Positions 3,636-53,570 of a stretch of DNA of 64,000 nucleotides are shown in pieces (the stretch's first letter is position 1; the number at the start of each line of letters is the position of its first letter). The DNA is from an uncultured Candidatus Sumerlaeota bacterium (GTDB lineage: Bacteria > Sumerlaeota > Sumerlaeia > MVZB01 > JAJFLK01), in the NCBI GenBank assembly GCA_964598765.1, contig CAZRCZ010000016.1:50595-114594 (forward strand), read 5' to 3'. Both the position numbers and the translations under genes were made by a program. The notes beneath the pieces were generated by a model. The model was not told the origin of the DNA. It was given only the letters and a program-made list of their open reading frames with translations, and searched no databases.

Positions 3636-4832
3636 ATGACGATGCAACCGCGTTTGCCCGCCGGAATTTATATCCACTGGCCTTTCTGCGCCCGCAAGTG
3701 TCCTTATTGCGATTTCTACACGTTCGGGCGGGAGCATCAAAATTTCGGGAAGGCCGGGCGTTATCTTGAAAGGTTGCTGGAGGAAATCCGGGCATATCCG
3801 AGACAACCGGACTGTGCCGAAGAGCCGGATGCCGAAACGATCTATTTCGGCGGCGGGACACCGAGCCTCATGGAACCGCGCGAATTGGGCGCGATTCTCG
3901 ACGCGTTGCGCGGCGTTTTTTGTCTCGCGCCCGATTCGGAAATCACGCTCGAAGTCAATCCCACCGCCGCCGAGGCCGAACGTCTGGCTCCGGCGTTGGA
4001 GTTGGGCGTCAATCGCCTGAGCGTCGGGGTTCAATCATTCAACGACCGCCTCCTGAAAATTTTGGGTCGCGATCACGACGCGCAATCGGCGCGGCGCGTT
4101 CTGGATTTGATTCGACGGATCGGTTGCGAGAACGTCTCGGTTGATCTGATGTTCGGTCTTCCCGATCAATCGCTCGCCGATTTCCAAGCCGACGTAGAGA
4201 AAGCGTTGTCGTTCTCACCGGAGCACTTGTCAGTTTACGGTTTGACCCTGCACGAAGGAACGCCGTTCAAACGATGGCGGGATGAAGGCAAATTGAATTT
4301 GCCCGATCCTGAAATCGAAGCGGCGCAACTTGAGTGGTTGATCGGGCGCATGGAAAATGCGGGTTATGTTCACTATGAAATTTCAAACTGGGCGCGATCC
4401 GGGCGCGAGAGCCGCCACAATTCCAAATACTGGCGGCAATGCGACATTCACGCTTTTGGGGTTTCGGCGCACGGCGTCCGAAGCGGACATCGCTACGCCC
4501 ATGCCCGCGATCTTGACGCTTATCTTCGTGGGAAAATCGCCTCCCAACCTTACGAGATAACTCAAGAAAACGGATCGCGTTCGGTCCGTTCCGTTGCGGG
4601 GGAAGTAATGATGCTCGCCCTGCGGCGAATCGGCGGAACGACTTGGTCGGAACTGGACGCATGGATCGAGGCGACGGCCAACCCGTGGCCGACGGACGGG
4701 ATTCGATCCTTCTACCAAAACGAATTGAAGCAATTGGAAGAGATCGGTTGGATCGAAACCGACGCCGATCGGCTTCGTCTGAGCCGCCGGGGAATCCTGT
4801 TTGCCGACAGCGTCATGGAGAAATTTTTTTGA
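3636..4832 (+). CDS. hemW: radical SAM heme chaperone HemW (oxygen-independent coproporphyrinogen-III oxidase-like)
   Basis: IYIHWPFCARKCPYCDF has the CxxxCxxC radical-SAM motif preceded by the HemW-type IYIH motif. Also YFGGGTPS, and the ~400-aa length. Confidence 0.85.
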   Translation: MTMQPRLPAGIYIHWPFCARKCPYCDFYTFGREHQNFGKAGRYLERLLEEIRAYPRQPDCAEEPDAETIYFGGGTPSLMEPRELGAILDALRGVFCLAPDSEITLEVNPTAAEAERLAPALELGVNRLSVGVQSFNDRLLKILGRDHDAQSARRVLDLIRRIGCENVSVDLMFGLPDQSLADFQADVEKALSFSPEHLSVYGLTLHEGTPFKRWRDEGKLNLPDPEIEAAQLEWLIGRMENAGYVHYEISNWARSGRESRHNSKYWRQCDIHAFGVSAHGVRSGHRYAHARDLDAYLRGKIASQPYEITQENGSRSVRSVAGEVMMLALRRIGGTTWSELDAWIEATANPWPTDGIRSFYQNELKQLEEIGWIETDADRLRLSRRGILFADSVMEKFF

Positions 4833-5968
4833 ATCCCCGCTCCCCGACTTCGATTTCCAAGCGAATTCTTTTTTCCGTCCTCGCCTGCGTTTTGTTTCTG
4901 ATTCTTCTGGAGGGACTATGTGGTTGGGCGTGGTTGCCTTGGGATTACATCGCTTGGCGCAAAAGCAAACCTTCCGCCGTTTCCTTTAAGGAAGATTACC
5001 ATTGTCGCTACGATTCGGAAATCGGATGGGTCCAAATTCCCGGCAAGAAGATTCCCGATCTTTACGGTCCGGGCAAATCCGTCACGATCAATCAAGCGGG
5101 CTTTCGCGGGTTGCGCGACAACCCGATCCCAAAACCGCCGGGCAAATTTCGGGTCGTTTGCCTTGGCGATTCCTTCACGCTCGGATACGGCGTGGACGAC
5201 GCGAATAGTTATCCCGCCCAACTTGAATCGCTCCATCCAGAAATCGAGGCGATCAACATGGGCCAAGGGGGCTATTCGATTGGGCAATGTTGGCAGTGGT
5301 TCAAGCGTGACGGCGAAAAACTCGACGCCGATCTTCTCCTTTTCGCCTTCATCGTGGATGACATCAGCCGGATGTTGAACGACCGGACCGCCAACGGCTA
5401 TTGGCTTCCCAAGTTCCACCTGAGGGAAGGCCACATCGTCGTGGAAAATCTTCCGATCCCTCCCAAAACCAAAACCGGCGGCCGGATGTTCGTAACAGGG
5501 GAAACGCTTCAGTTCCTCGGCGAACATGGCGGATTTCTGCGCGCCGTGGCAAAGCTGGTCCCTTCGCGCAAGACCCATCCGGACGAATTGAACGACGAGC
5601 GCTTCAAGGAGTTGATCGAATTGACGCTGGCGTTCTTCGGCGAATTGGACCGGATGCAAAAAGCCAAGGGAAAAAGCTTCGCGTTGGTCCAAATGCCGGA
5701 ATTGCGCGATTTTTCCGACGAGGGAAGCGTCAAGACTTATCTTTTTATCGCGGGCGTTGTGAAGGATTTCGCGACGACGAACAACATCCCCTATCTCGAT
5801 CTGCGCGAGGCCTTCGAGGCCGTTGGGCTGGACCGGATTCCGGCTCTCTATCTCGATGAGCCATGGCATCATTTCAGCGAGAAGGGAAATCGGCTTGTCG
5901 CGGAAACCATTGCCAACCGACTGCTTTCAGACGAAACGGCTGTTGCAAAGGGAGGGAAAACCCCTTGA
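4829..5968 (+). CDS. membrane-anchored SGNH/GDSL hydrolase family protein
   Basis: N-terminal TM segment (ILFSVLACVLFLILLEGLCGWAW), GDSL block FRVVCLGDSFTLGYGV, and C-terminal D..HH block. Start proposed at TTG 4829, overlapping the hemW stop (TTGA). Confidence 0.7.
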   Translation: MNPRSPTSISKRILFSVLACVLFLILLEGLCGWAWLPWDYIAWRKSKPSAVSFKEDYHCRYDSEIGWVQIPGKKIPDLYGPGKSVTINQAGFRGLRDNPIPKPPGKFRVVCLGDSFTLGYGVDDANSYPAQLESLHPEIEAINMGQGGYSIGQCWQWFKRDGEKLDADLLLFAFIVDDISRMLNDRTANGYWLPKFHLREGHIVVENLPIPPKTKTGGRMFVTGETLQFLGEHGGFLRAVAKLVPSRKTHPDELNDERFKELIELTLAFFGELDRMQKAKGKSFALVQMPELRDFSDEGSVKTYLFIAGVVKDFATTNNIPYLDLREAFEAVGLDRIPALYLDEPWHHFSEKGNRLVAETIANRLLSDETAVAKGGKTP

Positions 5969-7083
5969 GTCTCAAAAAGCGGTTTCTCTTCAGCATTGTC
6001 GCCGTGGCGATGGGATTGGTTCTTCTCGAAGGAATATGTCGCCTCATCTTTCTTATTCCGGACTACCGCACTTACCGGCAATCGAAACCGCGCGCGATTG
6101 AAATGAAGGAAGACCGTCACACGCGCTACAATTCCGAGCTGGGGTGGGAGCATATTCCGGGGAAGAGAATCCCGGATTTTTACGGCGAGGGACGAAACCT
6201 CACGATCAATTCACAGGGGTTTCGCGGACTGAGTGAAATCTCCCCTCAAACACCGCCCGACAAGTATCGGGTTGTTTGTCTCGGAGATTCCTTCACGCTG
6301 GGCTACGGTGTCGGCGATGAAGACACGTATCCCGCGAAACTAGAGGGAATCAATCCCGCCGTTCAGACGGTCAACATGGGTCAGGCGGCATATTCCGTCG
6401 GTCAATGTTTCCTTTGGTTGAAACGCGAAATCACGCGGATGGACTCCGATTTCATTTTGTTCGCATTGATTCCCAATGACCTAGACCGCATGGCATCGGA
6501 CCGGCTTCCCAATGGATACGCGACTCCATCGTTTAAGTTGCGCGAGGGGCGAATTGAAGTGGGCAATCAGCCGATTCCGGCCAAGATCGAAACCAACGCC
6601 CCGATGCTCCAACGCGGGGACTTCTTGCGATTTCTTGCACAAGATGATCCCGTCGCGCGTTCCGTGGCCTTGGTGATTCCGCGAGACGTTCGCGGAGGAA
6701 ATTCCGCTTTCGTCCAAAGCGAGGAGTTGATGAACGTGTCGCTGGCGATATTCGCCGCAACGCGCGATCTCGCGCGTGAGGGCCGCGCGGGATTCGGCGT
6801 GGTTCTCTTCCCCACGCTTGACGACATCCGAGAATCCAACAATCAATCCTCCTACTTCTTCCTTGCGGGAAGGATCCGGAGCTTTGCGAGGGTGCTAAAT
6901 ATCCCCTTTCTTGACATGCGCCCCGCCTTCATTCGGGAGGGAAAGGAAAAGGCCGCAGGGTTTTATTTGGACGAGGAATTCCATCACCTCAATCCGGCGG
7001 GGACGGCCTTCGTTGCCGGGCAAATCAATCAATGGCTCAAGGAATCGGTTCCCGGGTATCCCGGTTCAGGCGGAAAAAAATGA
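5965..7083 (+). CDS. membrane-anchored SGNH/GDSL hydrolase family protein (tandem paralog)
   Basis: Same architecture and about 50% identity to the preceding gene (YRVVCLGDSFTLGYGVGD; EEFHHLNPAG). Start proposed at TTG 5965, again a TTGA start/stop overlap. Confidence 0.7.
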   Translation: MSLKKRFLFSIVAVAMGLVLLEGICRLIFLIPDYRTYRQSKPRAIEMKEDRHTRYNSELGWEHIPGKRIPDFYGEGRNLTINSQGFRGLSEISPQTPPDKYRVVCLGDSFTLGYGVGDEDTYPAKLEGINPAVQTVNMGQAAYSVGQCFLWLKREITRMDSDFILFALIPNDLDRMASDRLPNGYATPSFKLREGRIEVGNQPIPAKIETNAPMLQRGDFLRFLAQDDPVARSVALVIPRDVRGGNSAFVQSEELMNVSLAIFAATRDLAREGRAGFGVVLFPTLDDIRESNNQSSYFFLAGRIRSFARVLNIPFLDMRPAFIREGKEKAAGFYLDEEFHHLNPAGTAFVAGQINQWLKESVPGYPGSGGKK

Positions 7084-7116: not shown

Positions 7117-7890
7117 ATGACCGAGGCTATAGTTCTCAGGACTTCTCCCTACAGCGAATCCACGTTGATCGTCTGGCTCCTGACGCGCGACGAGGGAGTC
7201 GCGCGCGTTCTGGCCAAAGGCGCGCGAAGACTGAAGGGGCGGGTCGCCGCCGCGCTCGATCTCTTCGCCCGCGTCCGGGTCTCGTTGCGCCTGCCCGCCG
7301 CATCGGATGCCTTGGGGATTCTGCGCTCGGTGGATTTGGAGGAATCATGGCTGTATCTGCGGCGCGATTTGAATCGGCTGGCCTTTGCCTCTCTCGGACT
7401 CGAAATCCTTGGCGCGGTGGCGAGTGCCTCGCCACCGGAACCCTGTTTCTTCGAGGAAGCGGCGGATTATCTTGCCAAGCTTGAAACCTCTTCCGCGCCC
7501 GGGTCACTGACGGCTTGCCTGCTTCTGCGCCTTCTTCATCACGCGGGTTACCCTCCGCGATTGGCTGACGTTCTGCGAGGCAAGTCTCTCCCTGCGAAAC
7601 TGGCCTACGATTTCAATGAAGGGACCGTCATCGAGCGAACGCCTTCGGGCGGCGCGGATCGAAGCATGGCCTTACCCCGCTCGCTCGTGGAGCGATTGGT
7701 TCCGTCGCTGGAAACTCCCCCCCGATTGGATCACGGTTTTGTCATCCCATCCAAAGAAGGCTCCGCGCTGTTGCGCTGGTTGATTCGGATTTGGGAGGAC
7801 CACCTCAATCAAAAAATTCAATCCGCCGAATTTATGGAGAAGACGATTTTGAATTCCGCTCCGACGGTTCCGCGATCCGGCGATGAATAA
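7117..7890 (+). CDS. recO: DNA repair protein RecO
   Basis: N-terminal OB-fold signature EAIVLRTSPYSESTLIVWLLTRDEG and ~250-aa length typical of RecO. Confidence 0.8.
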   Translation: MTEAIVLRTSPYSESTLIVWLLTRDEGVARVLAKGARRLKGRVAAALDLFARVRVSLRLPAASDALGILRSVDLEESWLYLRRDLNRLAFASLGLEILGAVASASPPEPCFFEEAADYLAKLETSSAPGSLTACLLLRLLHHAGYPPRLADVLRGKSLPAKLAYDFNEGTVIERTPSGGADRSMALPRSLVERLVPSLETPPRLDHGFVIPSKEGSALLRWLIRIWEDHLNQKIQSAEFMEKTILNSAPTVPRSGDE

Positions 7891-9439
7891 CGAAGCTAAA
7901 AAATCGGGCGGCGCATTCGCGACGTTCGCCCGCCGCCATTGGTTGACGGCGGCGTTGATCGTCGAGTTCGCGGTGGTCGTCGTTGTCAACGCATGGGTCT
8001 GCGACGACGCCTACATCAGCTTCCGCACCGTGGATAATTTCGTTCACGGCCGCGGCTTGCGATGGAACATTGACGAGCGGGTCCAGACTTACACGCATCC
8101 TCTTTGGATGTTGCTGGTGTCGGTCTTCTATTTTTTCACCCGCGAGCCTTATTTTACGAGCCTCGCGCTTTCGTTCGTCTTTTCAGTGGGCACGGTTGCT
8201 TTGGTTGCGTTCGCAATCGCGGAAACGCCGCTCTCGACCATCCCCATTCTTCTAATCCTGACCGTCTCCAAGGCGTTCGTGGATTATTCGACTTCCGGAT
8301 TGGAGAACGCCCTCACCCATTTTCTGCTCGCTCTATTTTTCTTCGGACTGTTGAGGTTCCGCCCGCGAATCAAAACCCTTTTCCTTCTTTCAATAATCGC
8401 CTCGCTGGCGGGGACGAACCGGATGGACGCGCTTCTCATTTTTCTGCCTCCGGTGATCTATTCATTCGCGCGGATCCGTTCCTTCAAGGCTTTTGGCATC
8501 ATGACTTCGGGTTTCGTTCCCTTTGTCGCGTGGGAAATCTTTTCTCTCATTTATTATGGGTTCCCATTTCCCAACACGGCTTACGCGAAACTTGGCGCGG
8601 GAATTCCGGCGTTGGAGCTGGCAAATCGGGGGCTTTATTATCTTCTGAATTCCATTCGCCTCGATCCCATCACGTTGCTTGCCATCGTGGGAGGAATGAT
8701 CGCCGCGGGATTAAGCGGCGACGGCCCGGCGCGGTCCCTCACGCTTGGGATCATACTCCATCTGCTTTACGTCGTTCGGATCGGCGGGGATTTCATGAGC
8801 GGGCGATTCCTTGCGGCTCCGTTGCTCTGTTCAGTCATCCTGCTTTCCCGGCGGGAACTGTCGGCGCGGACCTGCGTCGTCGCCGCGACTGCCGTCGCAA
8901 TTCTCGGATTGCTCAATCCTCTTTCCCCGATCCGAAGCGGTCCGAATTATCCTCCAAGCCGGGACCGCCTCATTGAGGCGCGGGGCGTATCCGACGAGCG
9001 GGGCTATTACTATCCGATGACCGGATTGTTGCGCTTGGGGCCGGAGTTTGAAATGCCCAAGCTTGTCCGTGCCGCCGCCCTGCATCAATCCCGCCGCGAA
9101 CCAAGGAAAGTCGCCGTCGAGTCCGCCATCGGCTTTGCCGGCTACAACGACGGTCCGTGGGTTCATCTGATTGACCCATGGGCGATTGCCGATCCGCTCA
9201 TGGCGCGATTGCCCGCCGTCGCGGGTGAAGTTTGGCGCCCGGCTCATTTTCGGCGCGAAATTCCGACCGGATACCTAGAAACCCTAGAATCAGGCGAGAA
9301 CCGAATCCAAGTCGCAAACTTGGCTCTCTATTACGACAAGCTTAGGTTGGTTACCCAAGGTTCGTTGTGGAATCGGGAACGTTGGATCACGATTGCCAAG
9401 TTGAATTTTGGAGCCTTTGACCGGTTTCTTACGGAATGA
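7883..9439 (+). CDS. polytopic membrane protein, GT-C-type glycosyltransferase (arabinofuranosyl/mannosyl-transferase-like)
   Basis: About 10 predicted TM helices. A DD motif (VCDDAYISFR) in the first extracytoplasmic loop right after TM1 is the hallmark of GT-C glycosyltransferases. Confidence 0.55.
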   Translation: MNNEAKKSGGAFATFARRHWLTAALIVEFAVVVVVNAWVCDDAYISFRTVDNFVHGRGLRWNIDERVQTYTHPLWMLLVSVFYFFTREPYFTSLALSFVFSVGTVALVAFAIAETPLSTIPILLILTVSKAFVDYSTSGLENALTHFLLALFFFGLLRFRPRIKTLFLLSIIASLAGTNRMDALLIFLPPVIYSFARIRSFKAFGIMTSGFVPFVAWEIFSLIYYGFPFPNTAYAKLGAGIPALELANRGLYYLLNSIRLDPITLLAIVGGMIAAGLSGDGPARSLTLGIILHLLYVVRIGGDFMSGRFLAAPLLCSVILLSRRELSARTCVVAATAVAILGLLNPLSPIRSGPNYPPSRDRLIEARGVSDERGYYYPMTGLLRLGPEFEMPKLVRAAALHQSRREPRKVAVESAIGFAGYNDGPWVHLIDPWAIADPLMARLPAVAGEVWRPAHFRREIPTGYLETLESGENRIQVANLALYYDKLRLVTQGSLWNRERWITIAKLNFGAFDRFLTE

Positions 9440-9506: not shown

Positions 9507-9535
9507 ATTATCGGCTTGACAGGGGATAAACTTTA
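9507..9535 (+). promoter_or_regulatory. conserved promoter-like motif TTATCGGCTTGACA-N6-AAACTTTA upstream of giant gene 1
   Basis: 14+8 nt identical, with identical 6-nt spacing, to the motif at 14655-14683 upstream of the paralogous giant gene. Contains a perfect TTGACA -35 hexamer. Confidence 0.45.
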
Positions 9536-9674: not shown

Positions 9675-12600
9675 TTGTTGATTTTGAGTATCGCATCCGG
9701 AAATACCGCTTGGAAGCGAAGGGCATTGGGGTGGTTTGTTGCCTCTTTAGCCTTTTCTTTTGCCGCTTGGCCTTCCTCCGTACAAGCCGCCGCCGTCCTC
9801 ACCATTGATCCCATCACTTTCAACGTCGTCGGGCTTGACAGCAACGACGTCACCACCGGTCCGAACATCTTTCTGGTCGGCGGGCGCGTCACGAACACCG
9901 GCGATGCGACGGCCACCAACGTCGTCGTCACCTACGTTTGGGATACCTCGGCCACTTACATCAACCTCCAAACCGGTTCCCCTTCGGTGATAACACAACC
10001 ATCGCTGGCGGCCGGGGCGTCGGCCGATTTCTATTTCAATATTGAACTCACCCGAAACGCCGCCGCCTACGATACAGCCCGCCGATACCATATCGAGGCC
10101 ACCGCCGACACGCTGGGAACGGTCAGCACGCCGACCCCCCGCGAAATCTACGTCGAGCACCTTGTTTCACAGAACCGGAACAGCGTTTATTCCTTGACCG
10201 GTCCCACAAGCGTCCTTGTCGGTTCGACTTACACGTACACCTTGAGCGCCGCAACGGCCACCCAAGGTTACGAACAGATTGAAGACTTCGTCAACTTCCC
10301 CAATATCCTCTTTCAAGTTATTTCAGTTTCAACGACCTACACGGTCTCCGCCATCGGTTCGCCGATTGACAAGATTTACGGAGACGCATGCGGTTGGATC
10401 AATGACCCGACGAACATCAATTACAGGAAATGCGGCGGGAGCGGCAAAGCCGGCGGCGATCCGATCAGCACGACGTTCCAAGTGAAAATTCTCTCCGCGG
10501 GCACCGCGACGGTCGAAAGTCTGATTTACGACTTTTCGGGAAGCAGTTACCATTACAATACCGACTTTGGAACGAACGGGGTGTTAACAATCATCGCTGT
10601 GACGCCGACGCCCACGCCGACCGAAACGGCCACCCCGACGCCAACCCGAAGCTCCACGCCCACTCCAACCACGACCGCAACTCCTTCCCCCACCCGGACG
10701 GCGACGCTCTCGCCGACGCGTACCGCAACTTTGTCTCCCACGCGGACTGCTTCGCTAACCGAAACCAGCACGGGGACCCCGTCTCCAACGCGGACAGCGA
10801 CGCTCTCCCCCACGCGGACGGCCTCGCTGACCGAGACTAGAACGGCCACGCCATCTCCCACGCGGACGGCGACGCTTTCGCCGACGGCCAGCGCGACGGA
10901 GTCTCCAACGCGCACGGCTACCGAATCCCCCACGCGGACGGCAACACTCTCCCCCACCCGAACCGCCTCGCTAACCCCGACCGATTCCTCCACGCCCAGT
11001 CCGACCCGGTCAGCTACTCCTTCACCAACCCGCACGGCTTCTCTGACTCCGACCGACACCCGGACCGCGACCCCCTCGCCGACTCGCACGGCGACGCTTT
11101 CGGCAACCCAGACCGCAACCTTGACGGTGACCTTCACCGTCACGCCTTCTCCGACGCGCTCGGCAACCGAATCTCCGACGCGCACCGCGACGTTGTCTCC
11201 CACGCGAACCGCGTCATTGACCGCGACGTCCAGTTCCACGCCCTCGCCTACGCGTACGGCAACCTTGTCTCCGACAAGGACGGCTTCGTTGACGGCGACC
11301 TCCAGCTCGACGCCATCCCCGACGCGCTCGGCCACTTTGTCCCCCACGCGAACGGCCTCGTTGACCGTGACCAACACTGCTACTTCCTCACCGACGCGAA
11401 CGGCGACGGAGTCCCCCACACGCACCGCCTCCTTGACCGCCACGTCCAGTTCGACGCCTTCGCCCACTCGAACGGCGACATTGTCTCCTACCCGGACCGC
11501 ATCCTTGACTCCCACGGATACGGCCAGTCCCTCGCCCACGCGCACGGCCACCGAGTCCCCAACCCGAACCGCTTCCTTGACGGCAACCAGTTCAGCCTCG
11601 CCTTCGCCCACGCGAACGGCGACCTTGTCTCCAACCCGGACCGCATCCTTGACTCCCACGGATACGGCAAGTCCCTCGCCCACGCGCACGGCCACCGAGT
11701 CCCCGACCCGAACCGCTTCCTTGACGGCAACCAGTTCAGCCTCGCCTTCGCCCACTCGAACGGCGACTTTGTCACCGACTCGAACCGCGACTCTTTCTCC
11801 GACCCGCACGGGCACGCTTTCCCCGACGCGTACGGCCTCCTTGACCGCCACCCGAAGCTCAACGCGCACCGCGACTCGCACGGCCACCGGTTCCCCCACG
11901 CGCACGGCCAGCGGCTCGCCGACAAGAACGGCCACGCTTTCGCCCACTCGAACGGCAACATTGTCACCGACATCCTCGGCCTCCGCTTCGCCCACCCGAA
12001 CCGCGACCGCCACGCCGACGTGCACACCGTATACGGCTCTGGATCGCGCCAACGCCGACATTCCGGTGGTTGGCACGGTTACGGGGGATTACACCGACAC
12101 TTGGGCGAGCGACAATGTTTATGAGTCCATCAAGGAAGCCTTCACGGGCGGCATCAATCGGGCGATCCACAAGTGGACCATCCCGGTCACGCCCGGCGGC
12201 CAGAACTATGTCTTCTCCGTTGAGGGCTATCACGATACGAATGGAACCGACTATTTCAGCGTCGAGTATTCGACGGACGACGTGACGTATATTCCGATGG
12301 TCACGATCACCAAAACGGCGGATGATGACGCGCATCAGACGTTCGCTCTTCCGTCGGTGTTGCCTTCGGTTGTGTATATCCGCATTCACGACAACAGTCC
12401 TCCGTTCCCCGCGACGGCGCCGACGGCCACGACCGATAACCGAACGGCGCTCTTCATTGACGATATGTTTATTTCGTCGGATTTCCCGTGCCCGACGCCG
12501 AGTCCGACCCAGACTGCTACCCCGACGCCGACGCGCACCGCGACGCTTTCGCCGACGCAATCGGCGTCTCCCTCGCCGACCCGGTCGGCCACGCTTTCCC

Positions 12601-14498
12601 CGACTCGCACGGCCAGTTTGACGCCAACCCGCTCGGCCACGGCTTCGCCGACGCGGACCGCCACGCCGACGTGCACTCCGTATACGGCTCTGGATCGCGC
12701 CAACGCGGACATTCCGGTGGTTGGCACGGTTACGGGGGATTACACCGACACTTGGGCGAGCGACAATGTTTATGAGTCCATCAAGGAAGCCTTCACGGGC
12801 GGCATCAATCGGGCGATCCACAAGTGGACCATCCCGGTCACGCCCGGCGGCCAGAACTATGTCTTCTCCGTTGAGGGCTATCACGATACGAATGGAACCG
12901 ACTATTTCAGCGTCGAGTATTCGACGGACGACGTGACGTATATTCCGATGGTCACGATCACCAAAACGGCGGATGATGACGCGCATCAGACGTTCGCTCT
13001 TCCGTCGGTGTTGCCTTCGGTTGTGTATATCCGCATTCACGACAACAGTCCTCCGTTCCCCGCGACGGCGCCGACGGCCACGACCGATAACCGAACGGCG
13101 CTCTTCATTGACGATATGTTTATTTCGTCGGATTTCCCGTGCCCGACGCCGAGTCCGACCCAGACTGCTACCCCGACGCCGACGCGCACCGCGACGCTTT
13201 CGCCGACGCAATCGGCGTCTCCCTCGCCGACCCGGTCGGCCACGCTTTCCCCGACTCGCACGGCCAGTTTGACGCCGACCCGCTCGGCCACGGCTTCGCC
13301 AACTCGGACCGCATCGCAGACCCCGACCCCCTGCGTGCCGGGAATCTTCAATGATTACGCGGTTTCCGATATTCCGGTCTCCGGCGTGGTCAGCGGCGAT
13401 TACACCGACACGTTCGCCAGCGACAACGTCTATGAAGGAATCAAGGAAGTTCTGATCGGCGGCGTCTGGCAGTTGGAGCACAAGTGGAGCGTGGGGATCG
13501 CTCCGGGTTCCGATGTTCACACCTTCTTTGTCGAGGCGTTCCATCAGGTTCAGGTTGGAAACGACGCCTTCGTCTTCAGCTACTCGACCGACGACGTGAC
13601 TTATACGCCGATGCTGACCGTCACCAAGACGGCGGACGACAACGCGACGCAAACGTTTGATCTTCCGTCCTCCTTACCGCCGGTGATTTATATCCGAGTG
13701 GTTGACGACTTCCGTCTGACCACGCTGGCGAGCAACTCGGCCGACACGATCAACATTGACTGGATGTTCGTCAAATCCACCCGCACCTGCGGCCTGACCC
13801 CGACCCCGACGCGCACGTCCACGCCTTCGCCCACTTCCACGGTTTCACCCTCGCCGACGCGGACGGCCACGCTTTCGCCCACGCGGACCGCAAGTTTGAC
13901 GCCGACGGCTTCATCCACGCCTTCACCGACGCGCACCGGCACCCCGTCTCCCACTCGGTCCGCGACGGCCACGCCATCGCCGACCCCGTGCGAACCGGCG
14001 ACCTACATTGACCGCGCCAACGCCGACCTCCCCGTCGTCGGAACGGTCACGGGCAATTACACGAACACCATCGGAAGCGACAACGTCTATGAAGGAATCA
14101 AGGAAGTCTATAGCGGCGGGATTTGGCAGTTGGAGCACAAATGGACGATCCCGATCACACCGGGCGCCAATCAGCACGTCTTCTCCGTCGAGGCGTTCCA
14201 CACGGCCAACGGTCTGGACGACGTGACGTTTAGCTATTCGACCGACGGCACGACCTTTATCCCGATGCTGGTCGTGACCAAGACGGCGGACGATAACGGG
14301 ACGCAGACCTTCCTGTTGCCGTCATCCCTGCCGTCGGTGATTTACATCCGTGTCCGGGACAACAAACCCGCCCGAACCGGAGATTTGACCGCCGATCATG
14401 CCATCACGATCAACGTGGACGACATGTTCGTCGCGTCGAGCATCGTCTGCCCCACCCCGACGCCCAACGCCGTCAGAGATTGGGAACTCTTCGACTAA
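9675..14498 (+). CDS. giant secreted repeat protein: signal peptide, DUF11-like N-terminal region, long Pro/Thr/Ser linker, 4 copies of a ~190-aa Cys-bounded domain, conserved C-terminal tail
   Basis: 1607-aa ORF (TTG start) with a signal peptide (KRRALGWFVASLAFSFAAWPSSVQA|AAV). N-terminal VTNTGDATATNVVVTY is a DUF11-like signature. TPTPTPTETATPTPT...SPTRTATLSPT low-complexity linkers follow. Four domains each start CTPY/CVPG/CEPA...DRANAD and end ...DDMF(I/V)SS..C. The protein ends PTPTPNAVRDWELFD. Confidence 0.8.
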   Translation: MLILSIASGNTAWKRRALGWFVASLAFSFAAWPSSVQAAAVLTIDPITFNVVGLDSNDVTTGPNIFLVGGRVTNTGDATATNVVVTYVWDTSATYINLQTGSPSVITQPSLAAGASADFYFNIELTRNAAAYDTARRYHIEATADTLGTVSTPTPREIYVEHLVSQNRNSVYSLTGPTSVLVGSTYTYTLSAATATQGYEQIEDFVNFPNILFQVISVSTTYTVSAIGSPIDKIYGDACGWINDPTNINYRKCGGSGKAGGDPISTTFQVKILSAGTATVESLIYDFSGSSYHYNTDFGTNGVLTIIAVTPTPTPTETATPTPTRSSTPTPTTTATPSPTRTATLSPTRTATLSPTRTASLTETSTGTPSPTRTATLSPTRTASLTETRTATPSPTRTATLSPTASATESPTRTATESPTRTATLSPTRTASLTPTDSSTPSPTRSATPSPTRTASLTPTDTRTATPSPTRTATLSATQTATLTVTFTVTPSPTRSATESPTRTATLSPTRTASLTATSSSTPSPTRTATLSPTRTASLTATSSSTPSPTRSATLSPTRTASLTVTNTATSSPTRTATESPTRTASLTATSSSTPSPTRTATLSPTRTASLTPTDTASPSPTRTATESPTRTASLTATSSASPSPTRTATLSPTRTASLTPTDTASPSPTRTATESPTRTASLTATSSASPSPTRTATLSPTRTATLSPTRTGTLSPTRTASLTATRSSTRTATRTATGSPTRTASGSPTRTATLSPTRTATLSPTSSASASPTRTATATPTCTPYTALDRANADIPVVGTVTGDYTDTWASDNVYESIKEAFTGGINRAIHKWTIPVTPGGQNYVFSVEGYHDTNGTDYFSVEYSTDDVTYIPMVTITKTADDDAHQTFALPSVLPSVVYIRIHDNSPPFPATAPTATTDNRTALFIDDMFISSDFPCPTPSPTQTATPTPTRTATLSPTQSASPSPTRSATLSPTRTASLTPTRSATASPTRTATPTCTPYTALDRANADIPVVGTVTGDYTDTWASDNVYESIKEAFTGGINRAIHKWTIPVTPGGQNYVFSVEGYHDTNGTDYFSVEYSTDDVTYIPMVTITKTADDDAHQTFALPSVLPSVVYIRIHDNSPPFPATAPTATTDNRTALFIDDMFISSDFPCPTPSPTQTATPTPTRTATLSPTQSASPSPTRSATLSPTRTASLTPTRSATASPTRTASQTPTPCVPGIFNDYAVSDIPVSGVVSGDYTDTFASDNVYEGIKEVLIGGVWQLEHKWSVGIAPGSDVHTFFVEAFHQVQVGNDAFVFSYSTDDVTYTPMLTVTKTADDNATQTFDLPSSLPPVIYIRVVDDFRLTTLASNSADTINIDWMFVKSTRTCGLTPTPTRTSTPSPTSTVSPSPTRTATLSPTRTASLTPTASSTPSPTRTGTPSPTRSATATPSPTPCEPATYIDRANADLPVVGTVTGNYTNTIGSDNVYEGIKEVYSGGIWQLEHKWTIPITPGANQHVFSVEAFHTANGLDDVTFSYSTDGTTFIPMLVVTKTADDNGTQTFLLPSSLPSVIYIRVRDNKPARTGDLTADHAITINVDDMFVASSIVCPTPTPNAVRDWELFD
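10600..12018 (+). repeat. Pro/Thr/Ser-rich low-complexity linker coding region (SPTRTA(T/S)L(S/T) units)
   Basis: About 470 aa of iterated [ST]PTRTA[TS]L[ST] units. This accounts for the long spurious antisense ORFs rich in VRVGE. Confidence 0.7.
12019..13320 (+). repeat. near-identical 651-bp tandem duplication (2 copies) inside giant gene 1
   Basis: ORF-track peptides at 12070-12285 and 12721-12936, and at 12322-12621 and 12973-13272, are identical at a 651-bp offset. Only one nucleotide differs (12025 a vs 12676 t). The copies diverge after about 13292. Confidence 0.9.
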
Positions 14499-14654
14499 AC
14501 GGGGCGGACGGATTTGGGGGCTGAGCAAGCCTTTTCCGTTTCGCGCCGAAAGCATGTTGCCTAGGTTTCTTCCCAAGCGGGATGGGCTTCACAGGCGTAC
14601 CGCCTGAGCCACGGGGACGGCACGGGGAAGCGTCGGATTTTACCCCAATTAGTT

Positions 14655-14683
14655 TTTATCGGCTTGACATGCATGAAACTTTA
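14655..14683 (+). promoter_or_regulatory. conserved promoter-like motif TTATCGGCTTGACA-N6-AAACTTTA upstream of giant gene 2
   Basis: Same motif as at 9507-9535. Lies 98 nt upstream of ATG 14781. Confidence 0.45.
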
Positions 14684-14780
14684 GCGCAAAGTGAGGCTCG
14701 CCGACGAATTCATCCGAATTCGACCTCGGAGCCAAGGTTGACGAGGCTTCCAGAATCACATCCGCAAGGGGGTTTTGGCC

Positions 14781-17700
14781 ATGACCGGGAAAAACTTTCG
14801 CAGACACACGCTCGTGAAGGCATCCAGTCTCCAGTGGGTTCTGAAGACCCTTTTCGTCTGCTCCATTTTCGGTCAGGCAACCCTCGGCCTGCCGCAAATT
14901 AATCTTACGTTGGACGTCACCTCCACCGCCGGGCATGAGGGTTACGTTTCGGGCGACGCCACCAACGGAAACCTCAACGCCACCAAAGCCAACACCAGCA
15001 ATACCGCGTTGCGAATCGGAGACTTGGAGGACGGTTCCCTCCCTGATCGGGGTATTCGCTCGATTCTTGATTTCAACACCACGTTCATACCTTCCAACGC
15101 GACCCTCAGCACCGCCTCGCTGATCTTGACGCGAGGAGGCGCTCAGGGAAGCATTGATCCCGGTTTTTCCCCTCCTCCCATCATGGAGGTCAATACGGGG
15201 CTTTATGGAAGGCCCGTCGTAAAGACCGACGATTTTGCCGTCGTTTCCACCGTTTCCAACGCGGGAGATCTGATTGTAGGCGCTTTTGACGGCGACACAA
15301 CCCAAAGTCCCCTCAATCCCTCCGGCGTGGCCGCGATCAACCGCGCCGGCGGACCGGGCCGGGGCAGAACGCAAATGAAGTTTCATTATACCCCCTTGTC
15401 GGATGACGACGGGGTTTCCGATTACGTCGGGTTTTATTCCACCAAGAACGGCAACGCCGCCTATCATCCGATCCTGCGCGTCGCCCTCACCGTTCCCGCC
15501 TCCAACATTGTCGTCTTGCCCGGAGCCTTGGATTTCCTGAGTCAGGATGTGGACGCCGGCCAAACGGCCTCCCAAACGATCACGATCCAAAATCTCGGCA
15601 CGGCCAGTTTGACCATCAATTCGGTGTCACTCACCGGGACCAACTCTTCGGAGTTTGCGATCGTCTCGGACACCGGCGAGACAACGCTGGCGGTCAGCGC
15701 CACGCGAACGATTCAGATCGCCTTTGATCCGAGCCTGCCCGGTGGAACCAAGACGGCGAGCCTCACCATTTCCTCCAGCGACACCCTTGAGCCGATCGTC
15801 AACGTGGACCTTACGGGAGACGCGGTGGATCAGGAGATTGACGTTGTTCCTGACACGCTCAATTTCGGTTCGCGGCTTCTCGGCTCCGGTCCCAGCGCCA
15901 GCCAGACGGCCAACGTCAGCAACATCGGATTTGTTTCGATTTGGGGCGGGGGGGACCTGAACATCGGAAGCGTTTCTCTTACCGGAGCCGACGCCGGCGA
16001 CTTCAACATCACCGCCGATTCGGGCGAAAATCCCATCCTTGCGGGGGCAACCCGAACCGTTGACGTGGCGTTCAATCCCATTTCGTCCGTCGGCCCGAAG
16101 ACTGCGTATCTGACGATTACCTCGGACGACACGAATGAGCCGACCACCAATGTTTTGTTGCTCGCGACGGCGATTCTGGCGACGCAGACTCCAACTCCGA
16201 CCCCAACGCAATCGGCTACTTCCACTCCGACCGGCACCGCCACCCCTTCGCCAACGATGAGCGCCACACCGTCGCCGACGAGAACGGCGACCCCTACGGC
16301 AACCGATACCGCCACGTCCTCCCCGACCCGGACGGCCACGCCCAGCCCGACGACCTCGGCCACGCCGACGCCAACGACGACCGGAACGCCTTCGCCGACG
16401 CGCACGGCGACGCTCTCCCCCACCATCACGGCCACGCCTTCGCCCACGCGCACGGCGACACCTTCCGAAACGCAGACCGCGACGGCCTCACCCACTCGCA
16501 CGGCCACTCTGACGCCAACCCCGTGCGTTCCCGGAACTTTCACGGACCGCGCCAATGCGGACGCGCCGTTCCTGACGGGCACGGTCGTCGGCGACTACAC
16601 GAACACGCAGGTCAATGACGGCGTGTATGAATCGGTCACGGAAGTTTATTCCGCGGGACATTGGCAACTGAGATACCGATGGACGATTCCGATCACGCCG
16701 GGTTCGGACGTTCACACTTTCGCGGTCAAGGCATTCCACGACGTCGCGGTGGGCGCGCCGGATGACTTTGAGTTCGGTTATTCCTTGGACAACAGCAACA
16801 GCTATATCCCGATGTTCACCCTAACCAAGACGGCGGACGATGGCCAGTATCAGACCTTTGTCTTGCCTTCGGCATTGCCGCCTCTGGTTTACATTCATGC
16901 CGTGGATACGATCCAGTGGGACACCAATCCCTCGTCCGACCGCGCGACGACGCTCAGCGTGGATGACATGTTCATCACCTCGACGATCACCTGCGGCCTG
17001 ACGCCCACGCCAACGCAGACCGCGACGGCCACCCCGACCCGAACCGCGACGGCGAGCCCGACGGCCACGCGAAGCTCGACCCTCACGCCGACTTTGACCG
17101 CCACGCTCTCCGCGACGCGCACGGCCACACTCTCGCCTACCGTTACGGCGTCGGCCTCGGCTACCCGAACTTCCACACTTTCGCCGACGCGAACCGCGAC
17201 GTTGTCTCCGACGCGCACGGCAACGGCTTCGCGGACCGGCACGGCGACCACGTCCCCCACGCGAACGGCCACGCCTTCGCCGACTCGGACGGCGACCAAA
17301 ACTCCGACCCGCACGGCCTCGGCGACGCGGACAAGTTCGGCGACGAAGTCTCCCACCCGGACAGCGACGCCGACGGCCTCAAGCTCGGCGACGCTGACAC
17401 CGACACCCACGCGCACAGCCACGACCACGCCGACGCCGTGCGTTCCGGGCTACTTCATTGACCGCGCCAACGCCGACGCGCCGCTGATCGGCACGGTAGC
17501 GGGCGATTACACGGCGACATTGGCGAGCGATGACGTGTATGAAATGCTGACCGAAGCCTACAGCGGCGGATACTGGCAGTTGAAGCACAAGTGGACGATC
17601 CCGATCACCTCCGGTTCGGACATTCACATCTTCTCAGTCGAGGCGTATCACGGGACCAATACGACCGGTCAGGATGACTTTAGCTTCAGTTATTCAACCG

Positions 17701-17957
17701 ACGGATTGAGTTGGACGCCGATGGTGACGATCATCAAGGCGCGCGATACCAATGAGCCTCAGACATTCGCTCTTCCGGCGTCGTTGCCCTCGGTGATCTA
17801 CATCCGCGCGACCGACACGGTGAATTGGGACACCGATCCCAATCCCGACCGCGCGACGTGGCTGAAGGTGGACGACATGTTCATCGCGTCATGGATCAGT
17901 TGCGGTCAGCCGACGCCGACGCCCAACGCCGTTCAGGATTGGGAACTGTTCGAGTAA
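14781..17957 (+). CDS. giant secreted repeat protein paralog: signal peptide, two ASH/Hydin-like (choice-of-anchor-D-like) beta-sandwich domains, Pro/Thr linker, 2 copies of the Cys-bounded domain, conserved C-terminal tail
   Basis: ATG at 14781 is preceded by AAGGGGG. Signal peptide present. Two ~100-aa repeats (LDFLSQDVDAGQTASQTITIQNLGTASLTINSVSLTG...FAIV... and LNFGSRLLGSGPSASQTANVSNIGFVS...SVSLTG...FNIT...) resemble ASH/Hydin domains. Two C...DRANADAP...DDMFI.S..C domains are about 60% identical to those of gene 1. The protein ends PTPTPNAVQDWELFE. Confidence 0.8.
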   Translation: MTGKNFRRHTLVKASSLQWVLKTLFVCSIFGQATLGLPQINLTLDVTSTAGHEGYVSGDATNGNLNATKANTSNTALRIGDLEDGSLPDRGIRSILDFNTTFIPSNATLSTASLILTRGGAQGSIDPGFSPPPIMEVNTGLYGRPVVKTDDFAVVSTVSNAGDLIVGAFDGDTTQSPLNPSGVAAINRAGGPGRGRTQMKFHYTPLSDDDGVSDYVGFYSTKNGNAAYHPILRVALTVPASNIVVLPGALDFLSQDVDAGQTASQTITIQNLGTASLTINSVSLTGTNSSEFAIVSDTGETTLAVSATRTIQIAFDPSLPGGTKTASLTISSSDTLEPIVNVDLTGDAVDQEIDVVPDTLNFGSRLLGSGPSASQTANVSNIGFVSIWGGGDLNIGSVSLTGADAGDFNITADSGENPILAGATRTVDVAFNPISSVGPKTAYLTITSDDTNEPTTNVLLLATAILATQTPTPTPTQSATSTPTGTATPSPTMSATPSPTRTATPTATDTATSSPTRTATPSPTTSATPTPTTTGTPSPTRTATLSPTITATPSPTRTATPSETQTATASPTRTATLTPTPCVPGTFTDRANADAPFLTGTVVGDYTNTQVNDGVYESVTEVYSAGHWQLRYRWTIPITPGSDVHTFAVKAFHDVAVGAPDDFEFGYSLDNSNSYIPMFTLTKTADDGQYQTFVLPSALPPLVYIHAVDTIQWDTNPSSDRATTLSVDDMFITSTITCGLTPTPTQTATATPTRTATASPTATRSSTLTPTLTATLSATRTATLSPTVTASASATRTSTLSPTRTATLSPTRTATASRTGTATTSPTRTATPSPTRTATKTPTRTASATRTSSATKSPTRTATPTASSSATLTPTPTRTATTTPTPCVPGYFIDRANADAPLIGTVAGDYTATLASDDVYEMLTEAYSGGYWQLKHKWTIPITSGSDIHIFSVEAYHGTNTTGQDDFSFSYSTDGLSWTPMVTIIKARDTNEPQTFALPASLPSVIYIRATDTVNWDTDPNPDRATWLKVDDMFIASWISCGQPTPTPNAVQDWELFE

Positions 17958-18142: not shown

Positions 18143-19582
18143 ATGATTGCCACCGCCGCCTCTCCCATCGCCCTTGCCCGCGAACTGGGCCAGACGGGCG
18201 ATTATCAGGGCGCGATCAACGCGCTGAACGACGTTCTGCGGGGCGATCCCTCCAACGTCGAAGCGTTGTTCCTCATGGGAGCGTCGTGTTTCAAGCTGAA
18301 TATGTTCAGTCGCTCGCGGGAATCGTGGACGCGCGCGCTCAAACTCGATCCGAATTTCACCAAAGCTCAAAATTGGCTGAACAAACTTCCGGCGGCGGAG
18401 ACCGCCTATCTCATGGATCGCGCGCGGGCGCTCGGCCAGACGGGGGATTACCGGAGCGTTCTTCGGACGTGCAACGAACTGCTAAGCCTTTATCCCGATC
18501 ATATCGAGGCAAATTTCCTGCTGGGCGCGGCGTGCTTCAAGCTGGGCAATCCCGACCGCGCCGGCGAGGCTTGGCGCAAAGTTCTGCAACTCTCCCCCAA
18601 TCATGACAAGGCCAAACGGTGGCTTGCGAAGTTGCCGCAGGAGGAGCCGAGTGTGGCGCGGCGACCGGAGGCTATGGAATTTCCCGCCACGCCGGGGCAA
18701 ATTGACATCAGGCATCGTGAAAGCGGCGAGGTTTTGCGCACGGTCAAACAGGAGACGCTCGAAAGCGCGGACTTGGCCGGATGCGATCTTCGCCACGCCG
18801 AACTGCGCAAAGCGAACTTGAAGCGCGCCAATCTTTACGCCGCCGATTTGACCCGCGCCAATCTTCCCGACGCGGACCTGACCGACGCCAATTTGCGAAG
18901 CGCGGTTTTAACGGATGCCTGCCTCGCCGGAGCGAACTTAAAGGACGCCAATATGATCAGCGCATTTCTTCGCTCGGCCACGGCGTCGGACGCGAACTTG
19001 GGCGAAGCCAATCTGACACGCGCGATTTTAACCAATGCCAATTTGGAGGGATCGAATTTCCATGGAGCGACGCTGGTGGACGCCGATTTGGGGAACGCGG
19101 TTTTGACCGACGCCAACATGGCCGGAGCAAATCTGGAGGGAGCCGGGCTGGCCAGCGCGTTTCTGCGCTCCACGAATCTTGCGGGGGCGAACCTCGCGGG
19201 AGCCGACCTGCGGCGGGTCAACTTGAGCAACGCCAATTTGGAGGGGGCAAATCTGGAAGGCGCGCGAATGACCGGCGCGTTTCTGCGCGCGGCCAATTTG
19301 ACCAACGCCAATTTGTCGGGAGCCGTGCTGACCCGCGCCAACCTCAGTAGCGCGAATTTGGAGGGAACCAGTCTCGCCAACGCCGACTTGACCGACGCCG
19401 ATCTGGGAGGGGCGTTCCTGAGCGGTTCGTCTTTGGCCGGAGCGAAGGTCGCGGGCGCGAATTTCACCGGAGCCAACTTGGCTCAAACCAACCTTGAGGG
19501 AACCAATCTGGTTTTGGCCGGAACCAACGGCTCGGGCGCGGAAAAGAATTCCGAGGCCCTTACTCAGGTTCCTTCCGAATAA
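18143..19582 (+). CDS. TPR repeat plus pentapeptide-repeat protein
   Basis: N-terminal TPR-like repeats (two copies of LGQTGDY...EA.FL.GA.CFKL...W...L.L.PN). The C-terminal ~260 aa are uninterrupted A(N/D)L..A(N/D)L pentapeptide repeats. Confidence 0.8.
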   Translation: MIATAASPIALARELGQTGDYQGAINALNDVLRGDPSNVEALFLMGASCFKLNMFSRSRESWTRALKLDPNFTKAQNWLNKLPAAETAYLMDRARALGQTGDYRSVLRTCNELLSLYPDHIEANFLLGAACFKLGNPDRAGEAWRKVLQLSPNHDKAKRWLAKLPQEEPSVARRPEAMEFPATPGQIDIRHRESGEVLRTVKQETLESADLAGCDLRHAELRKANLKRANLYAADLTRANLPDADLTDANLRSAVLTDACLAGANLKDANMISAFLRSATASDANLGEANLTRAILTNANLEGSNFHGATLVDADLGNAVLTDANMAGANLEGAGLASAFLRSTNLAGANLAGADLRRVNLSNANLEGANLEGARMTGAFLRAANLTNANLSGAVLTRANLSSANLEGTSLANADLTDADLGGAFLSGSSLAGAKVAGANFTGANLAQTNLEGTNLVLAGTNGSGAEKNSEALTQVPSE

Positions 19583-52865: not shown

Positions 52866-53570
52866 TCAACGATTCGGCGGTATGAATCGCTTGCGGAACC
52901 ACCGCATTCCGAAAATGTCGCTGATCCCCACCCACAGCCGATTCATCGTGCCGTATTTGGAAACGCCCTTGTGCCGCGGGCGATCATTGATCCGGACTTC
53001 CTTGACCTTGAATCCCTGCCATCGCCAGATCGTCGGGAGAAACCGGTGCATTCCCTTGAAGGGCACGACGCAACGGGTTGTTTTCCGGCGAAGCGCGCGG
53101 AAGGTGCATCCGGCGTCGTGAACGTCGTCATTCAGCATGAAACCGCGGAAACGATTGGCGATGCGCGAGGAGATTCGTTTGACCCATGTGTCCTGCCGTT
53201 TGCCGCGCACGCCGGCGACGGCGTCGCAGTCCTCCAATTCGCGCAGGAGCATCGGAATATCGGCCGGATCGTTTTGAAGGTCGGCGTCAATCGTGACGAT
53301 GATCTCGCCCCGGGCGTTCTCGAATCCGGTTAATTCTCCCGCGCTTTCGCCGCAATTGAAACGATGCTCGGCCATCCGCAGTTCAGGATACTTCGTCATC
53401 GCCTCCTTGAGGCGCTGAACCGTGCCGTCCGTGCTGGCGTCATTGACGTAGATGATCTCATACGGCTTGCCGATTTGCTTCATCACCGGATCAAGCTCGG
53501 CCAATAAGGGGAAGACGTTGTCCTCCTCGTTGTAACAGGGAATCACGACGCTGATTTCAGGATTCGTCAT
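52866..53570 (-). CDS. family 2 glycosyltransferase (polyprenyl-phosphate sugar transferase, ArnC/GtrB-like)
   Basis: ISVVIPCYNEE, YVNDASTDGT and TIDADLQNDP (DxD) blocks of GT2 polyisoprenyl-phosphate glycosyltransferases. Confidence 0.8.
   Translation of the reverse strand: MTNPEISVVIPCYNEEDNVFPLLAELDPVMKQIGKPYEIIYVNDASTDGTVQRLKEAMTKYPELRMAEHRFNCGESAGELTGFENARGEIIVTIDADLQNDPADIPMLLRELEDCDAVAGVRGKRQDTWVKRISSRIANRFRGFMLNDDVHDAGCTFRALRRKTTRCVVPFKGMHRFLPTIWRWQGFKVKEVRINDRPRHKGVSKYGTMNRLWVGISDIFGMRWFRKRFIPPNR

Follow-up and report, generated by a model that had tools for sequence, protein, structure and literature searches.

Two adjacent genes of an uncultured Candidatus Sumerlaeota bacterium encode putatively exported proteins with a new family of galactose-binding-domain-like jelly rolls on Thr/Pro-rich stalks

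We have analyzed a stretch of 64,000 nucleotides (nt; hereafter, the window) from an uncultured Candidatus Sumerlaeota bacterium (GenBank assembly GCA_964598765.1, contig CAZRCZ010000016.1, positions 50,595 to 114,594). Two adjacent plus-strand genes of the window, gene 1 and gene 2, encode giant modular proteins that contain four and two copies, respectively, of a domain bracketed by cysteines (Table 1). We conclude that this domain is not a new fold but a sequence family, new and still without a name, within the galactose-binding-domain-like superfamily; its fold, a β-jelly-roll, is nearly certain. Both proteins are, we consider, fairly probably exported and carry the jelly rolls as multivalent polymer-binding beads on long stalks; for the binding function itself, the chances appear about even. 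An earlier sequence-only reading of the window, made without database searches, had described the pair as secreted paralogs built from an unassigned domain.

In a map of Cys positions and composition, the gene 1 protein shows four blocks and the gene 2 protein two, with Pro/Thr/Ser-rich stretches between them. A scan of the window in six frames with a hidden Markov model (HMM) identified exactly six copies of the domain, all within the two genes, which confirms the four plus two Cys-bounded copies described before. All six score as full-length domains, have Cys as first and last residue and measure 153–157 residues from Cys to Cys. The earlier estimate of ~190 residues is thus too large; the repeats are spaced by 217–220 residues (651–660 nt), corresponding to the domain plus a linker of ~60 residues. 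Pairwise identity among the six copies ranges from 54 to 100% (54–61% when copy 4 of gene 1 is the reference), 46 alignment columns are invariant, and the motifs quoted previously (DRANAD, KWTIP.TPG, YSTD, TKTADD..QTF.LP, YIR and DDMF) are all present. Copies 1 and 2 of gene 1 lie in a 651-nt tandem duplication (12005–12655 and 12656–13306) that comprises the jelly roll and its linker and shows 5 mismatches. This duplication is very recent or has been homogenized, and the copy number of the 651-nt unit may be unreliable in a short-read assembly.

The window copies match no Pfam or NCBIfam model at threshold. The best score is obtained with DUF6727 (18.3 bits, cut-off 22.3), F5_F8_type_C (PF00754) reaches at best 14.6 bits (E = 0.036, gathering cut-off 28.2), and the NCBIfam choice-of-anchor J model (NF038128) gives no match at E ≤ 0.1. 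Among 51 diverse members of the family, F5_F8_type_C is found, weakly, in 27 (E < 0.1, best 1.1e-6), choice-of-anchor J, also weakly, in 9 (best E 2.4e-7), Reelin_subrepeat-B in 6 and F5_F8_type_C_2 in 4. These recurrent matches allow the domain, which the sequence-only reading had left without a family, to be placed in the galactose-binding-domain-like superfamily. It matches no established Pfam or carbohydrate-binding module (CBM) family with high confidence; the family is indeed unnamed, but the domain is not novel in kind.

Word-indexed homolog searches found almost nothing (one match for a single-copy query, four for an alignment of 51 sequences), so an exhaustive profile search was needed. 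This search covered 1.84 billion cluster representatives (50% clustering) and returned 1434 representatives at E ≤ 1e-3, 1004 at E ≤ 1e-10 and 182 at E ≤ 1e-30. Since relatives match the profile to E = 5e-146, the value of the strongest one, the family relationship is far beyond chance. The survey of distribution that the sequence-only reading had proposed thus shows a domain that is not rare and occurs in many bacterial phyla and in archaea. Species-representative metagenome-assembled genomes (MAGs) with the family belong to Planctomycetota (Phycisphaerae, Pirellulales, Sedimentisphaerales), Verrucomicrobiota (Luteolibacter, Pontiella), Lentisphaerae, Acidobacteriota (Bryobacterales), WOR-3, KSB1, Calditrichota, Gemmatimonadota and Dehalococcoidales, and, on the archaeal side, to ANME-2c, Argoarchaeum and Thermoplasmata. 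A scan of Joint Genome Institute (JGI) metagenomes with the window copies gave distant relatives of at most 52% identity, none of which is Cys-bracketed.

The AlphaFold2 (AF2) model of copy 4 of gene 1 has a fold predicted with high confidence, a β-jelly-roll of the galactose-binding-domain-like type, which bears out the β-sandwich suggested before. When this model was used as a Foldseek query, a probability of 1.00 was obtained for MAM, CBM61, CBM16 and CBM32, with TM-scores of 0.45–0.64. The top structural neighbors are mostly carbohydrate-binding modules (CBM29, CBM16, CBM22, CBM4, CBM61 and CBM32), at sequence identities of 5–17%. The fold class of these neighbors also holds protein-binding members, namely MAM, the ephrin-receptor ligand-binding domain, IFT25 and reelin. 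A sequence search of the PDB with the family profile yielded no meaningful chain, only spurious matches at E > 0.1.

The domain occurs once in 93 of 148 related proteins, twice in 50, three times in 3 and four times in 2. Partner domains, surveyed in 55 family proteins, are of types common in extracellular proteins and include fn3 (15 proteins), Calx-beta (12), Big_9, cadherin-like, PKD, subtilase, β-helix, LamG and GDSL domains and the tail of the type IX secretion system (T9SS). Positions E39, W52, D124 and D144 are invariant across the family, and G18, G22, T27, D31, H50, A69, F79, S84 and L110 are nearly so. The acidic and aromatic invariants are compatible with a structural Ca2+ or ligand site of the kind usual in this fold.

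Several observations weigh against a polymer-binding role or against parts of it. Glycoside hydrolase or lyase partners are rare in the sample of 55 proteins, so that the classic role of a CBM appended to a carbohydrate-active enzyme (CAZyme) is not indicated. The most conserved loop of the family, DTDRxxGN...DT, is replaced in the window copies and varies between them; as a result, the ligand site in these copies may be changed or lost. The replaced loop is also the part of the copy 4 model with the lowest confidence. No solved structure is nearer than the superfamily level, nor does any member of the family have a known ligand. Finally, all carriers of the C-terminal peptide described below were found via the jelly roll, and the independence of the peptide from the domain is therefore only partly shown.

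An alternative is a structural or self-assembly module that mediates protein-protein contacts, for instance for building or docking in an S-layer, sheath or matrix, in which case the domain would not be a lectin and the two proteins would be parts of a scaffold or matrix. The partners of the domain are mostly adhesin or matrix repeats rather than catalytic domains of CAZymes, the protein binders of the fold class offer precedents, and a conserved loop that varies among the window copies points the same way. We nevertheless regard this explanation as unlikely, as the nearest structural neighbors are for the most part CBMs, and the wide taxonomic spread, archaea included, together with the diversity of partners favors a generic ligand over a protein partner specific to one lineage.

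The position of the domain within its proteins raises another explanation, that of a C-terminal secretion or anchoring domain comparable to the T9SS C-terminal domain (CTD) and not a binding module. The last copy ends within 6 residues of the C-terminus in 59 of the 148 proteins, with a very uniform ending (typically ...TVYIRVxDTDRTxGNxxxDTIYIDHMFIRSE). This explanation is improbable: several members combine an internal jelly roll with a true T9SS sorting domain or a PEP-CTERM-like anchor at the end, one to four copies occur per protein, the window copies are internal and repeated, and the hosts, which include archaea, have envelopes and secretion systems that are not related to one another. 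More improbable still is that the jelly roll is a small enzyme domain dependent on a metal. The conservation of E39, H50, D124 and D144, with D31 nearly invariant, could be read in its favor, but no catalytic jelly roll ranks above the CBMs among the structural matches, and the conserved DTDR loop has been lost in the window copies, although these are still under constraint. To our knowledge, the known catalytic jelly rolls also exceed 155 residues.

The Cys bracket, by which the sequence-only reading had recognized the domain, is a sublineage add-on and not a defining trait of the family. Among 128 full-length copies from outside the window, neither Cys is present in 111, one in 10 and both in 7, all of the latter from the sublineage of the window. 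The two cysteines were thus gained as a pair, which supports the closing disulfide that had been predicted from the bracket. Three traits, namely the Cys bracket, the SPTRTA-type stalks and the C-terminal peptide, are found only in this sublineage; with the replaced DTDRxxGN...DT loop, they make up four linked differences from the rest of the family.

The stalks consist of [ST]PTRTA[TS]L linkers, as noted previously; their composition is rich in Thr (31–39%), Pro (12–22%), Ser (11–19%) and Ala (7–16%) and includes 4–8% Arg. The regular spacing of Arg in the SPTRTA stalk is unusual for Pro/Thr-rich (PT) linkers. Gene 1 contains 39 SPTRTA units in 36 different DNA versions, and gene 2 contains 10 units in 10 versions. 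Because the 39 copies of gene 1 use 36 versions, the stalk peptide has been kept by selection and does not reflect recent slippage. The SPTRTA-type unit is also present in proteins of relatives from other genomes, and, among the 150 best matches, long PT stalks are confined to the sublineage of the window.

The composition of the stalks is consistent with O-glycosylated PT linkers. The sole hints of such a modification are two genes for GT-C-type glycosyltransferases, one directly upstream of gene 1 and a second one (PMT_2) on the minus strand at 53557–55056. The product of the upstream gene matches an NCBIfam β-arabinofuranosyltransferase model (AftB-like) with E = 1.5e-16 over its N-terminal 250 residues, far below the equivalog cut-off. 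Its match to Pfam GT22 has E = 0.0012, no Pfam family is above threshold, and it is not a recognizable GT39 protein O-mannosyltransferase (PMT). Based on its adjacency, the enzyme might glycosylate the stalks or the cell envelope.

Both proteins end in a common peptide, PTPNAV(R/Q)DWELF(D/E), which the sequence-only reading had missed. Comparison with relatives gives the consensus PNAxRxWE[LIV][FY][DE] and a wider form, PNA[VAT][RQK][DNG]W[ED][LIV][FY][DEG]; the peptide follows jelly rolls, a PT linker, a cupredoxin-like end or different sandwiches (Table 1). No sorting-domain model of Pfam or NCBIfam matches the full gene 1 and gene 2 proteins at E ≤ 1, and the tails PTPNAVRDWELFD and PTPNAVQDWELFE contain no hydrophobic stretch. 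Readings of the tail as a WxL domain or as an LPXTG, PEP-CTERM or T9SS signal were therefore rejected. The peptide is a tentative candidate for a retention or sorting motif. A degenerate DNA pattern for it was found neither in the JGI metagenome contigs nor in the viral contigs; among 83 loci it occurred only in L001, with no occurrence in the 80 loci from named MAGs. The lineage thus seems rare in these collections. The window corresponds to Logan runs SRR12313479/80. L001 (positions 1–698 of a Logan contig of SRR12313479) is a third locus with the same stalk, a Cys-bracketed jelly roll and the tail. It shares 60–63% protein identity and ~70% DNA identity with the end of gene 1. Its flanks differ (a GFO/IDH/MocA gene), and it is one more paralog or else stems from a related strain.

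Thus, we propose that the products of gene 1 and gene 2 would be exported by the Sec pathway as extracellular beads-on-a-string proteins with different Ig-like heads. The jelly rolls would bind in a multivalent manner, with a glycan or another polymer as the most likely ligand, and the two proteins together might be adhesins of the surface or matrix or might capture polymers. The stalks, probably stiff and possibly glycosylated, would space heads and beads. Each jelly roll would be clamped from its first to its last residue by the predicted disulfide, such that tension on the stalk would bypass the fold, and the C-terminal peptide may be a motif, specific to this lineage, that is recognized in retention or sorting. 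A bolder version, which we consider doubtful, is that Cys-clamped jelly rolls, SPTRTATL stalks and C-terminal peptide together mark an undescribed, lineage-specific surface-display system in which the short, charged peptide is a new sorting or anchoring signal read by a partner, the jelly roll being a new CBM family of >1000 members in bacteria and archaea.

The N-terminal parts of the two proteins differ. The gene 1 head was modeled by AF2 as two β-sandwiches with a predicted local distance difference test (pLDDT) value of 85.6, and its matches to Pfam DUF11 (PF01345) and CARDB (PF07705) are sub-threshold. It has 661 full-length homologs at 55–63% identity, in MAGs of Chloroflexi and Acidobacteria. 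Most of them are proteins of ~430 residues from Chloroflexi, Pyrinomonadaceae and Thermoanaerobaculia that are annotated as 'uncharacterized repeat protein (TIGR01451 family)' and consist of the head module followed by a DUF11-type domain. The homologs and the modeled sandwiches give tentative support to the DUF11-like character proposed for this head; the Pfam scores stay below threshold. The best homolog, from a 'Chloroflexi bacterium' MAG, also runs into a TPTPTP...ATRT linker; taken alone, it would be a weak hint that the sublineage belongs to Chloroflexota. Invariant motifs of the head family are GLDSN, RRYHI, TPTPRE.YVE..SQNRN, DACGW...NYR.C and DFSGSSYHYN, and the second sandwich has no Pfam model. 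The strong conservation of this abundant family hints at a specific function.

Gene 2 has an N-terminal module (residues 40–240) that is tentatively DNRLRE/CBM96-like and is additional to the two ASH/Hydin-like repeats described before. The assignment derives from a match to NF033679 that covers residues 60–118 and lies below the cut-off (E = 4.7e-4, 20.3 bits, cut-off 34); no Pfam family, DNRLRE/CBM96 (PF24517) included, matches the module at E ≤ 10, and no PDB sequence matches it. The two repeats themselves are well supported. Residues ~241–465 match choice-of-anchor D (NF012200) in 2 stretches with E = 1.1e-23 (83.8 bits, cut-off 45) and HYDIN_VesB_CFA65-like_Ig (PF22544) with E = 1.6e-12 (48 bits, cut-off 25.5), and residues 413–458 match DUF1573.

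Both open reading frames (ORFs) are intact, with 1607 residues for gene 1 and 1060 (from TTG) or 1058 (from ATG) for gene 2. Translation of gene 2 more probably begins at the ATG at 14781, which follows a ribosome-binding site, AGGGGG, and the true start of gene 1 may be 1–3 codons further downstream. Signal-peptide-like N-termini are visible in both, in agreement with the earlier reading; that of gene 2, judged by reading the sequence, is weaker, and is clear in its ortholog P0004. The claim of paralogy holds for the C-terminal halves of the two proteins, but their heads differ, so they are not paralogs over the full length. P0004, a protein of 972 residues from another NCBI genome, has by eye the same order of regions as gene 2, and identities between its jelly-roll copies and those of gene 2 range from 53 to 67% with the pair compared.

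In the public collection, gene 1 is represented by its C-terminal 810 residues only (P0002), starting inside jelly-roll copy 1, which suggests that automatic gene callers truncate it. The cause is probably the long spurious reverse-strand ORFs over the stalk (10553–12076 and 11964–13652); these and others over the stalks were rejected as mirror images of the repeats. The region of both genes has raised GC content and negative GC skew because of its Thr/Pro codons, which account for both features, and horizontal transfer need not be invoked. The most improbable of the explanations considered is that the giant ORFs are artifacts of assembly or annotation, with repeats that were collapsed or expanded when the MAG was assembled from short reads, or that they are pseudogenes in decay. 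In its favor, the region is highly repetitive, the 651-nt units of copies 1 and 2 of gene 1 are 99% identical, metagenome contigs of the same organism break just before the repeats (L082 ends ~110 nt past the upstream gene) and the public call of gene 1 is short. Against it, runs of 4.8 kb in gene 1 and 3.2 kb in gene 2 are free of stops, six full-length copies are retained, the fold is predicted at high confidence, the order of regions is kept by P0004 in another genome, and the scrambled synonymous codons of the stalk aid unique assembly and show selection on the peptide. Any doubt concerns how many repeats there are, not whether the genes exist.

Table 1. Features of the two genes and their surroundings, and C-terminal sequences of the gene 1 and gene 2 products and related proteins. 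Nucleotide positions refer to the window; i-E, independent E-value.
Feature	Coordinates	Strand	Details
GT-C-type membrane glycosyltransferase gene	7883..9439	+	Directly upstream of gene 1; library matches, context only
Promoter-like motif upstream of gene 1	9508..9535	+	TTATCGGCTTGACA-N6-AAACTTTA; TTGACA -35, CACAAT 17 nt downstream
Gene 1	9675-14498	+	Intact ORF, 1607 aa; order: signal peptide, two-β-sandwich DUF11/CARDB-like head, long stalk, four jelly-roll copies, C-terminal peptide
Putative Sec signal peptide, gene 1, aa 1-38	9675..9788	+	KRR, hydrophobic ALGWFVASLAFSFAAW, VQA↓A; read from sequence
Gene 1 head, aa 38-307	9786..10595	+	Two Ig-like DUF11/CARDB-type β-sandwiches; AF2 model, homologs
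Main stalk, gene 1, ~475 aa	10596..12020	+	8-aa units [ST]PTRTA[TS]L; 24/72/144-nt periodicity
Jelly-roll copy 1, gene 1, aa 783-939	12021..12491	+	HMM i-E 1.3e-51
Jelly-roll copy 2, gene 1, aa 1000-1156	12672..13142	+	HMM scan; protein identical to copy 1
Jelly-roll copy 3, gene 1, aa 1220-1372	13332..13790	+	i-E 2.1e-55
Jelly-roll copy 4, gene 1, aa 1439-1592	13989..14450	+	HMM scan; copy used for structure modeling
C-terminal peptide, gene 1	14451..14495	+	PTPTPNAVRDWELFD; sequence, motif common to relatives
Promoter-like motif upstream of gene 2	14656..14683	+	Second copy; identical 22 specified bases
Gene 2	14775-17957	+	Intact ORF, 1060 aa counting from TTG; order: signal peptide, DNRLRE-like module, two choice-of-anchor D Ig domains, two successive stalk/jelly-roll pairs, C-terminal peptide
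N-terminal module, gene 2, aa 40-240	14892..15494	+	Tentatively DNRLRE/CBM96-like; weak NF033679 match
Two choice-of-anchor D / HYDIN-VesB-type Ig-like domains, gene 2, aa ~241-465	15495..16169	+	NCBIfam/Pfam
Jelly-roll copy 1, gene 2, aa 584-740	16524..16994	+	i-E 2.7e-47
Jelly-roll copy 2, gene 2, aa 889-1043	17439..17903	+	i-E 1.4e-51
C-terminal peptide, gene 2	17904..17954	+	GQPTPTPNAVQDWELFE; sequence
Gene 1 C-terminal sequence			...CPTPTPNAVRDWELFD; after jelly roll
Gene 2 C-terminal sequence			...CGQPTPTPNAVQDWELFE; after jelly roll
L001 C-terminal sequence	L001 660-698		...PLPNAVKNWDLYE; after jelly roll; relative from same metagenome
P0003 C-terminal sequence			...IPLPNAARNWEIYE; after cupredoxin-like end
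P0004 C-terminal sequence			...PTPNATRDWELYG; after PT linker
P0019 C-terminal sequence			...TPNAARGWEVYE; after different sandwich
P0029 C-terminal sequence (variant)			...TPNTARNWEIYE; after different sandwich

Each gene is preceded by a copy of the same promoter-like element, with TTGACA as -35 and CAnAnT as -10 located 17 nt downstream. No other copy is found in the window at ≤3 mismatches, where 0 are expected by chance. Since the same motif precedes both genes, it indicates separate, probably coordinated transcription, and the element may be a regulatory signal private to this pair. Further upstream, two adjacent paralogs of GDSL-like lipase/acylhydrolase (4643–5968 and 5863–7083) lie just before recO (7117–7890) and the GT-C gene; this arrangement of GDSL pair, recO and GT-C gene recurs on the metagenome contig L082. 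Directly downstream of gene 2 is a gene with tetratricopeptide (TPR) and pentapeptide repeats (18143–19582; Pentapeptide E = 2.3e-74), which has no evident link to the jelly-roll proteins. Searches of the window for tRNAs and Rfam families gave no match.

The Pfam and NCBIfam releases used here miss the window copies, and such proteins are at present annotated as hypothetical. With the family defined, extracellular proteins of Planctomycetota, Verrucomicrobiota, Acidobacteriota and other phyla could be annotated better, and its definition would nominate a candidate new CBM family, of which the sublineage of the window provides a natural multivalent version, clamped by predicted disulfides and mounted on unusually regular stalks. 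The C-terminal peptide could reveal a new sorting or anchoring mechanism. The peptide, which is the most novel feature, and the clamped-bead architecture most deserve to be followed up. Current understanding is not overturned, as both the fold and the modular logic are familiar.

Among known domains, the F5/8 type C family (PF00754, including CBM32) is also a galactose-binding-domain-like β-jelly-roll of ~150 residues, and repeated weak matches connect it with the family described here. The family differs in having only 8–16% identity to solved F5/8 type C members and in its own motifs (SDxxYE, LEHKWT, TVTKTxDD, YIRVxDTDR and VDxMFI). Type-B β-sandwich CBMs (CBM29, CBM16, CBM22, CBM4 and CBM61) and newly described marine CBMs (PDB 8xmz, 8zqf and 8jiy) resemble the domain only in its predicted fold, with 6–15% identity and no common sequence family. 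Like the extracellular choice-of-anchor domains J and D, the family is combined with varied ends (a T9SS tail, a PEP-CTERM-like end or no anchor); unlike choice-of-anchor J, to which the family is related below threshold, the window copies show no match to that model. In canonical eukaryotic discoidin domains (PROSITE entry PDOC00988), a disulfide joins the N- and C-termini. The C domains of factor VIII have one disulfide each (PMC3695351). The window copies, with Cys at their first and last residues and a disulfide that is predicted, are similar in this respect, whereas most members of the jelly-roll family have no Cys pair. The Cys bracket thus fits the superfamily assignment.

The C-terminal peptide resembles LPXTG, PEP-CTERM, GlyGly-CTERM and PGF-CTERM signals and the T9SS CTD in being a short conserved C-terminal motif shared by differently built secreted proteins of one lineage, and, as with known C-terminal sorting signals, it usually lies just past a Pro/Thr-rich spacer. 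In contrast to signals of the LPXTG and PEP-CTERM type, it has no transmembrane segment or basic tail, is charged and occupies the final 11 residues, the last of which is Asp, Glu or Gly. It is also far shorter than the T9SS CTD, a β-sandwich of ~80–100 residues. No sortase-like gene that would go with the peptide was identified. The stalks can be compared to the Pro/Thr-box linkers of cellulases and cellulosomal scaffoldins and to the O-mannosylated PT linkers of actinobacteria, which are likewise long, rich in Thr, Pro and Ser, and space folded secreted modules. Genes for GT-C glycosyltransferases near the stalk genes are a further point in common with O-mannosylated PT-linker systems. Unlike either type of linker, the window stalks are made of a regular 8-residue unit with Arg and Leu (SPTRTATL) that is conserved as a peptide across species.

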